Assembly: GCA_965208635.1 (NCBI GenBank)
Contig: OZ242349.1
Location: 588,272 to 652,271 of the forward strand
Reading direction: 5' to 3'
Source: Candidatus Poribacteria bacterium
GTDB lineage: Bacteria > Poribacteria > WGA-4E > WGA-3G
DNA length: 64,000 nucleotides
Shown: one piece after another, positions 24,835 through 24,850 of the stretch
Numbering within the stretch: position 1 is the stretch's first letter
Layout of the letters: every line of letters begins with the position of its first letter
Position numbers and translations under genes: made by a program
Notes under the pieces: generated by a model
The model's database searches: none
Told to the model about the DNA's origin: nothing
Seen by the model: the letters and a program-made list of their open reading frames with translations, nothing else

Positions 24835-24850
24835 GCAAGTTCCGTGCCAA
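24835..24850 (-). promoter_or_regulatory. sigma-54 (RpoN) promoter, -24/-12 elements
   Basis: The plus strand reads gcaagttccgtgccaa. Its reverse complement is TTGGCACGGAACTTGC, which matches TGGCAC-N5-TTGC exactly. The predicted TSS is near 24823 (minus strand), about 265 nt upstream of the peptide gene. A sigma-54 activator gene lies 660 bp away. Confidence 0.7.

Follow-up and report, generated by a model that had tools for sequence, protein, structure and literature searches.

What switches on a short peptide gene, and the genes that follow it, in a bacterium from an uncultured phylum? The question is raised by a stretch of 64,000 nucleotides from a Candidatus Poribacteria bacterium (assembly GCA_965208635.1, contig OZ242349.1, positions 588,272 to 652,271), which is called the window below and is numbered from its first letter. 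On its minus strand, a gene for a bacterial enhancer-binding protein (bEBP) of 346 aa (25513-26553) is followed, after a gap of 955 nt, by a gene for a peptide of 102 aa (24249-24557), the first gene of the predicted transcript. The gap contains a 16-nt element, TTGGCACGGAACTTGC (24835-24850, minus strand), which has the form of a sigma-54 (RpoN) -24/-12 promoter. Judging from the sequence comparisons described here, we consider it to be a working sigma-54 promoter that the adjacent bEBP activates, with a probability of about 0.8.

The -24/-12 element, its candidate enhancer and its probable activator

The element is on the same strand as both genes, 663 nt downstream of the bEBP gene, and the C of its -12 doublet is 278 nt from the ATG of the peptide gene. 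Within it, TGGCACGGAACTTGC (24835-24849, minus strand) matches TGGCAC-N5-TTGC with no mismatches, the GG (24847-24848) and GC (24835-24836) doublets being exactly 10 nt apart. This is the only exact match on either strand of the 64-kb window, for which shuffled sequence gives an expectation of 0.10. The extended sigma-54 consensus, YTGGCACGRNNNTTGCW (YTGGCACGrNNNTTGCW), reportedly the one given by Barrios et al. in 1999, is likewise matched exactly and only once in the window, at 24834-24850; the sole other match to it with at most one mismatch lacks the GC of the -12 region. By the usual sigma-54 geometry transcription would start at 24823, 12 nt downstream of the -12 C, giving a leader of 266 nt up to the ATG at 24557. 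The sequence-only reading of this DNA had reported an exact RpoN consensus on the minus strand, with these distances and this predicted start; the match is indeed exact, it proves to be unique in 64 kb, and the positions are right.

Two sites of the form TGGCAT-N5-TTGC (TGGCATAGATTTTGC, 16958-16972 and 23509-23523, plus strand), each with one mismatch, were rejected as false positives. They lie antisense in Kelch coding sequence and are apparently the reverse complement of a repeated run of Kelch-motif codons, and five related loci (L002, L003, L004, L007 and L008) have the same sequence in their Kelch genes, again antisense.

Related loci were taken from Poribacteria genomes (28 loci, with 12 more added through exact-protein look-ups), and nine homologous copies of the promoter region were aligned, L030 and L031 being identical there and counted once. 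In this alignment the element has a mean pairwise identity of 98.6%, with 15 of its 16 columns invariant and the lone change in its spacer. The 15 nt directly upstream of the -24 region form a conserved block, GTTTTATGAAAGGGG (24851-24865, minus strand), with 95% identity and 13/15 columns invariant, and this block is more conserved than the candidate enhancer described below (87%, 32/50 invariant). Identity is 66% (23/171) between enhancer and promoter, 64% (6/17) in the 17 nt downstream of the -12 region, and 59% (8/34) in the DNA before the enhancer. The sequence TTGGCACG(G/A)AACTTGC stands before the peptide gene in L001, L003, L030/L031, L032, L033, L045 and L043, and in L032 the exact promoter is kept in both of two tandem cassettes. 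The element is also retained in copies that do not come directly after a bEBP gene (L003, L032b and L043).

A second lineage provides independent examples. Locus L006 has two perfect elements, TTGGCACAAAAATTGCT and TTGGCACGAAAATTGCA, placed 60 and ~137 nt before two peptide genes. Upstream of each of them (L006 1822-1880 and 3617-3675) are the repeats TGCAAAATCTGCAG, TGCAGAATTTGCC and CTGCGAAAAATTTGCGTAG, which presumably serve as enhancer for another bEBP; the L006 contig fragment itself carries no bEBP gene.

The candidate enhancer, or upstream activating sequence (UAS), is at 25037-25083 on the minus strand. It is made up of one half-site, TGACGC (25078-25083), and a tandem pair of 15-bp palindromes, GCGTC-N5-GACGC (25055-25069 and 25037-25051), whose centres precede the predicted start by ~239 and ~221 bp. 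The palindrome occurs nowhere else in the window in exact form, and the homology between the window and loci of the L003/L032 type starts exactly at the palindrome cluster. The spacer between UAS and promoter (24866-25036) is poorly conserved and variable in length: 26 nt are deleted from it in L033 and ~114 nt in L043, with UAS and promoter kept in both cases, and the deletion in L043 brings the palindromes to between about -105 and -125, the classical distance. Two conserved islands joined by a flexible, poorly conserved loop are the pattern predicted for an enhancer-dependent promoter.

The presumed activator consists of an AAA+ domain and a C-terminal Fis-type helix-turn-helix domain (Sigma54_activat PF00158, 3e-68; AAA_lid_14 PF25601, 2e-21; HTH_8 PF02954, 6e-11). 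The AAA+ domain starts at residue 29 and the open reading frame (ORF) cannot extend upstream; with only ~28 residues before the AAA+ core, the protein is a bEBP without a sensory domain. Its best relative of solved structure is the AAA+/DNA-binding fragment of ZraR (1ojl, 1e-72, aligned over residues 28-343). It scores below every NCBIfam equivalog cut-off, and orthology with PspF fails (TIGR02974, 261 bits against a cut-off of 443.55; NF008622, 236 against 529). It belongs to a large Poribacteria family of sensor-less proteins of ~330 aa, numbering at least 120 clusters with an identity of 64% or above; most of the 120 closest relatives, which were compared here (P0121-P0240), have only ~40 residues before Walker A. 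Regulators of the PspF/HrpRS type are controlled by a trans-acting partner or by their expression level (PMC7057263). Since the bEBP has no sensory domain, its activity too is probably set by its own amount or by a partner acting in trans, if the analogy with PspF and HrpR/S holds. No neighbouring gene was recognised as PspA- or HrpV-like, the ORFs scanned being only the 103-aa one adjoining the bEBP gene (26628-26939) and another ~800 nt further on (27359-27697), neither of which has a Pfam match.

Just downstream of the bEBP gene, at 25259-25402, there are imperfect inverted repeats, with 38-nt arms that are 76% complementary and an adjacent 31-nt pair. Near these repeats, and not overlapping them, the segment 25115-25176 recurs after bEBP genes elsewhere.

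Several observations weigh against assigning the element to sigma-54 and this bEBP. The UAS is ~215-260 bp from the start, beyond the 100-150 bp described as typical (PMC7057263), and no integration host factor (IHF) consensus with at most one mismatch lies between the UAS and the promoter. The loop of the bEBP that would contact sigma-54 reads GAFTSA in place of the canonical GAFTGA, keeping the F and T and having Ser as its fifth residue. GAFTSA is found in 87 of the 120 closest relatives and GAFTGA in 14 (GAFTTA, GAFTNA and GSFTSA are single cases), and it is conserved, together with the short N-terminus, in the bEBP orthologues; being so common among the closest relatives, it looks like a trait of the lineage and not a defect or the mark of a decayed gene. 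The literature searched does not mention GAFTSA. No RpoN-box signature was detected in the ~340 kb scanned (the window and the flanks of related loci), as is to be expected for 340 kb, and the many bEBP genes of Poribacteria suggest that the source genome does encode rpoN. Finally, most peptide paralogues in Poribacteria lack a -24/-12 element, especially those within the operon after the second glycosyltransferase-like gene. Together with the elements of L006, this indicates that sigma-54 control of the peptide family is recurrent and not universal.

The sequence-only reading took the element for a sigma-54 promoter, and that view gains support from the adjoining bEBP gene, the near-invariance of the element in nine copies, the upstream dyads and the independent elements of L006. 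The variant loop aside, in every feature that can be checked at the level of sequence the arrangement of promoter, enhancer and activator is that of a textbook enhancer-dependent sigma-54 system. Following the general mechanism of sigma-54 enhancers (PMC7057263), sigma-54 RNA polymerase would bind the -24/-12 element as a closed complex. The sensor-less bEBP would bind the tandem palindromes (25037-25069), oligomerise, reach the promoter by looping of the DNA, and open the complex by ATP hydrolysis, with transcription starting near 24823 and the transcript opening with a protective 5' hairpin.

Regulatory inputs and the leader

Across the related loci, the type of promoter varies with the regulatory gene beside it. 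A bEBP orthologue upstream, the UAS and the -24/-12 element occur together in the window, L001, L003, L030/31, L032 and L033, and a bEBP gene is adjacent in 7 of the 9 loci of sigma-54 type. In L007, L022, L029, L042 and L044, orthologous genes for an extracytoplasmic function (ECF)-type sigma factor lie directly upstream; these loci share the 3' part of the leader without having the -24/-12 element, and have a different upstream segment with a perfect TATAAT ~290 nt before the ATG. Comparison of the loci thus presents a clean natural swap of regulatory input, sigma-54 with its bEBP in one set and an ECF-type sigma factor in the other, before the same leader.

Some loci carry rearranged versions of these parts. 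L008 has the bEBP gene and the palindromes, and has lost the promoter and the whole leader, so that its palindromes are joined almost directly to the Shine-Dalgarno sequence of the peptide gene (L008 3399-3500). L043 (2150-2500) has the UAS ~75 nt upstream of the -24 region and keeps the first hairpin of the leader, with most of the 3' part deleted (leader ~104 nt); no bEBP gene is adjacent in L043. In L032 (2471-5384) the unit comprising UAS, promoter, leader, peptide gene, Kelch gene and a 5' cytochrome fragment is tandemly duplicated, and N-terminal cytochrome fragments of 43-53 aa before the UAS in L003, L008, L032 and L033 mark the duplication boundary. The ECF-type copies contain a sequence, TGGCAACTTGG, that resembles TGGCACGGAACTTGC minus 4 nt. 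The window has an ECF-type sigma gene of its own (34020-34655, minus strand), ~10 kb away and ~26% identical to those beside the related operons, with no evident link to the peptide operon.

The leader is predicted to be strongly structured. Its minimum free energy is -95.7 kcal/mol, compared with -67.6±4.6 for shuffled sequences (z = -6.15), and a significant degree of structure is predicted for divergent leaders too (z = -3.3 and -4.0). The predicted transcript opens with a hairpin of 45 nt, hairpin 1 (24773-24817, minus strand; -22 kcal/mol, z = -6.4), which is found only in copies of sigma-54 type and is kept in L043 despite the loss of the rest of the leader. It is followed by a conserved, structured 3' module of ~205 nt (24560-24764, minus strand). 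The module comprises a weak AU-rich hairpin (24739-24763, -6.4 kcal/mol), a branched domain that is closed by UGGCAG/CUGCCA and encloses a GC-rich hairpin (24656-24728), and a long hairpin (24582-24639) ending ~9 nt before the Shine-Dalgarno sequence AAGGAG (24567-24572), which is unpaired and precedes the peptide ATG. A profile search of the loci with nhmmer matched the module in 13 further loci, behind both types of promoter; in L022 the first gene after it is another one, the peptide gene coming later. The peptide gene of L026 (3501-3650), which has a frameshift beyond residue ~30, is probably a pseudogene, and the leader module upstream of it is intact.

Two short reading frames lie in the leader. 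The sequence-only reading had recognised only the first, a 64-aa ORF with a GTG start (24622-24816), which does exist, and had overlooked a 33-aa ORF with an ATG start (24514-24615), which begins in the last hairpin and overlaps the start of the peptide gene. Stops or frameshifts interrupt the former in L001, L003, L030, L032, L033 and L045. Of the latter, copies of the L003 type keep only 9 codons, and L034 and L045 lack its ATG. Neither frame has been preserved in the homologous copies, and the leader is therefore non-coding, as had been supposed from the 64-aa ORF.

The same reading had suggested that a long structured leader could carry additional regulation, and had proposed structure prediction or a covariance search as checks. 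These return a strong fold and modest covariation, and the suggestion is favoured by the stability of the whole leader, by the compensatory changes in its conserved 3' 205 nt, and by the presence of this module behind a second type of promoter. Over 15 copies, RNAalifold gives 5 helices with 50 pairs, in which 96.4% of cells are paired. Six pairs are changed on both sides, four of them in the GC-rich hairpin, compared with 1.0±0.9 in column shuffles (none of 500 reaching six) and 0-2 in controls in which the partner was slid.

The main alternative is that the promoter is real and the leader has no function as RNA, its conservation reflecting recent ancestry, gene conversion of the cassettes, or sites bound by proteins at the DNA level (the hairpin 1 repeat, for example, might be an operator). 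The cassettes have certainly been duplicated and rearranged, and between the two promoter types the identity of the module (0.77) is not above that of 4-fold degenerate sites (0.80). Within the sigma-54 type, on the other hand, the module is 0.88-0.90 identical in six of the seven other copies (0.72 in L045), or ~89%, whereas in the same copies the UAS-promoter spacer is 66% identical and the 4-fold third positions of the adjacent gene are 0.62-0.77 identical. The covariation term is only -0.32 kcal, with the changes coming mostly from L022, L030 and L001, and hairpin 1, conserved in 8 copies, has no compensatory changes at all; this has to be set against the excess of two-sided changes over both kinds of control. 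The antisense strand folds nearly as well as the sense strand (z = -5.8), so that folding energy is uninformative about the strand, but many G-U pairs are possible on the sense strand only. Neither L043 nor L008 has kept the module, and leaders of 60-137 nt suffice in L006, yet the module has survived a complete change of promoter and regulator. On balance we regard a leader without RNA function as possible but rather unlikely, and an RNA-level function as having somewhat better than even odds.

If the leader does function as RNA, the 3' module would act after initiation, because it is found behind the TATAAT/ECF-type promoter as well and is deleted in one copy of sigma-54 type. Stabilisation or processing of the mRNA, or control of the translation of the peptide gene, would be the natural roles. 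The module is a candidate for a new RNA motif, independent of the promoter and with modest support. A more specific proposal is that it is an undescribed riboregulator peculiar to Poribacteria, responsive to a ligand or protein or acting in mRNA processing, which gates the production of a novel class of hypervariable cysteine-rich peptides and for which the sigma-54/bEBP and ECF cassettes are interchangeable inputs; this we offer tentatively, and think doubtful.

Known types of leader element were also considered. An Rfam 15 search of 24000-25600 found no meaningful family, giving four matches to unrelated miRNAs and snoRNAs (E = 4-8) far below gathering scores, and 24558-24823 contains no terminator-like site. 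An attenuator formed by the AU-rich hairpin and AUUUUUG was rejected, the hairpin being weak (-6.4 kcal/mol) and the U-run being broken in the ECF-type copies. The last hairpin has in its apical loop a sequence, GGAUGGAUG, that looks like a CsrA-type site; this reading was set aside too, since L034 and L045 have a CCACCU-type sequence there, with the stem kept. Five matches to the leader core in a pattern scan of metagenomes (L036-L040) are all unrelated and due to chance.

Other readings of the promoter DNA

The sequence-only reading was silent on the fact that the same DNA can be read as a sigma-70-type promoter, with TTGGCA as the -35 box and TATAGT as the -10 box across a spacer of 17 nt (24850-24822, minus strand), the match to sigma-54 being then coincidental. 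The consensus score is high, at 10/12, but three sites of this kind occur in the region against 2.7 expected. The -10 hexamer is variable, reading TATGGT, TCTGG or TATAG in other copies, and the 17-nt spacer depends on a 3-nt insertion (TCA) after TTGC that is peculiar to the window, the spacer being 14 nt in seven other copies. The segment after the -12 region, where this -10 box would lie, has 64% identity compared with 98.6% for the -24/-12 element. We consider a sigma-70 promoter very unlikely.

An ECF-sigma promoter, with GGAACTT as its -35 box and (G)TCTAA as its -10 box, is hardly more than a nominal alternative. Both GGAACTT and GTCTAA are present, and they resemble the consensus of Escherichia coli sigma-E; moreover, ECF-type sigma genes adjoin the homologous leader in the five loci named above. 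Those loci, however, lack this sequence and have the segment with TATAAT in its place, and the loci that do have it have a bEBP and not an ECF sigma factor as the adjacent regulator. The two boxes are separated by 14 nt in the window, by 13 nt in L043 and by 11 nt in seven other copies, a distance that is neither conserved nor as long as the usual ~16 nt. What defeats both the sigma-70-like and the ECF-like reading is the lack of conservation in their -10 boxes and spacings, and both leave unexplained why the conserved positions are exactly TGGCAC and TTGC.

That the match is due to chance and has no promoter activity, an unrecognised promoter or read-through from the bEBP gene accounting for transcription of the peptide gene, is scarcely credible: although 10 of 100 shuffles of the window contain at least one exact TGGCAC-N5-TTGC, the 955-nt gap read on the correct strand would be expected to contain ~7.5e-4 by our own arithmetic, the element is invariant (save for the spacer change already mentioned) in nine copies whose flanks have diverged, including those of L003, L032b and L043 that do not directly follow a bEBP gene, and the leader contains no other sigma-70-like site.

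The peptide operon and comparison with known systems

The first ~50 residues of the peptide are almost invariant among its relatives, and its C-terminal half is hypervariable and cysteine-rich. There are 203 such relatives, and every named one is from Candidatus Poribacteria. The genes downstream (15199-24034, minus strand), annotated from Pfam and NCBIfam, encode a Kelch protein, a fusion of cytochrome c554 with a DsbA-like domain, a GT4 glycosyltransferase, a glycosyltransferase-like protein of 547 aa, a second Kelch protein and an A24-type peptidase. They have the same order in related loci, and are probably co-transcribed with the peptide gene, whose product they probably process. The A24 (prepilin-type) peptidase carries an archaeal PepC domain, and the N-termini of the two glycosyltransferase-like proteins resemble the peptide-binding N-terminus of ScfB-type maturases. 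From these annotations the operon looks like an undescribed system for a modified peptide, similar to ribosomally synthesised and post-translationally modified peptides (RiPPs), or like a pilin-type system. The literature searched contains nothing on sigma-54 or rpoN in Poribacteria and nothing on the peptide/Kelch cluster; a preprint on the 'srp RiPP' deals with NHLP proteusins, a family other than the Poribacteria peptide.

Between the peptide gene and the first Kelch gene there is a conserved hairpin (24075-24125, minus strand; -25.9 kcal/mol, z = -5.8), inside which are a smaller terminator-like hairpin and a T-run (24089-24105). It may be a partial terminator or a stabiliser of the 3' end of the mRNA, in keeping with a peptide mRNA segment that is stable and is partly read through into the genes beyond, and it may work together with the leader module.

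Taken together, the activator, enhancer, promoter and leader make up a testable regulatory map for an operon in uncultured Candidatus Poribacteria. The map suggests that this conserved, uncharacterised and putative peptide-modification operon might be switched on in a heterologous host by supplying rpoN and the sensor-less bEBP. The promoter itself is of textbook kind, and the only mildly novel part is the leader module, as a structured RNA candidate without an Rfam family.

The leader can be compared with 5'-terminal stabilising stem-loops and structured 5' UTRs, of which the ompA leader is an example. As in leaders of that type, a stable hairpin marks the predicted 5' end or begins a few nucleotides from it, and a second strong hairpin is found just 5' of the unpaired Shine-Dalgarno sequence. 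The leader described here differs in matching no Rfam family and in its 3' module, whose length and conservation go well beyond what simple stabilisation would require.

The promoters of type IV pilin genes (pilA), which depend on sigma-54 and PilR, also drive the expression of a small, abundant, exported protein. The likeness consists in a sigma-54 promoter for a small protein and an A24-family (prepilin-type) peptidase in the neighbourhood. Unlike PilR, the bEBP here has no receiver domain and no partner kinase, and the peptide has no recognised pilin domain. The cysteine-rich, hypervariable C-terminus of the peptide and the maturase-like N-termini of the glycosyltransferases look more like a modified-peptide system.

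Parallels are also found in the enhancer-dependent sigma-54 systems, for example glnAp2/NtrC, pspA/PspF and hrpL/HrpRS. PspF and HrpR/HrpS likewise consist only of an AAA+ domain and a C-terminal helix-turn-helix; the Poribacteria proteins, with ~28-40 residues before the AAA+ core, are of this design, although the bEBP of the window is not an orthologue and has the loop GAFTSA instead of GAFTGA. With respect to glnAp2, pspA and hrpL, the present system differs in the distance of its enhancer (~215-260 bp, compared with 100-150 bp), in having no IHF-like site, in its host from an uncultured phylum, and in its target, a putative peptide-modification operon. In other respects it agrees with them: the -24 GG/-12 GC geometry and the extended consensus are the same, there is a cluster of dyads upstream, an activator of the Sigma54_activat family is encoded beside its target, and the variable, poorly conserved spacer between enhancer and promoter is consistent with DNA looping.

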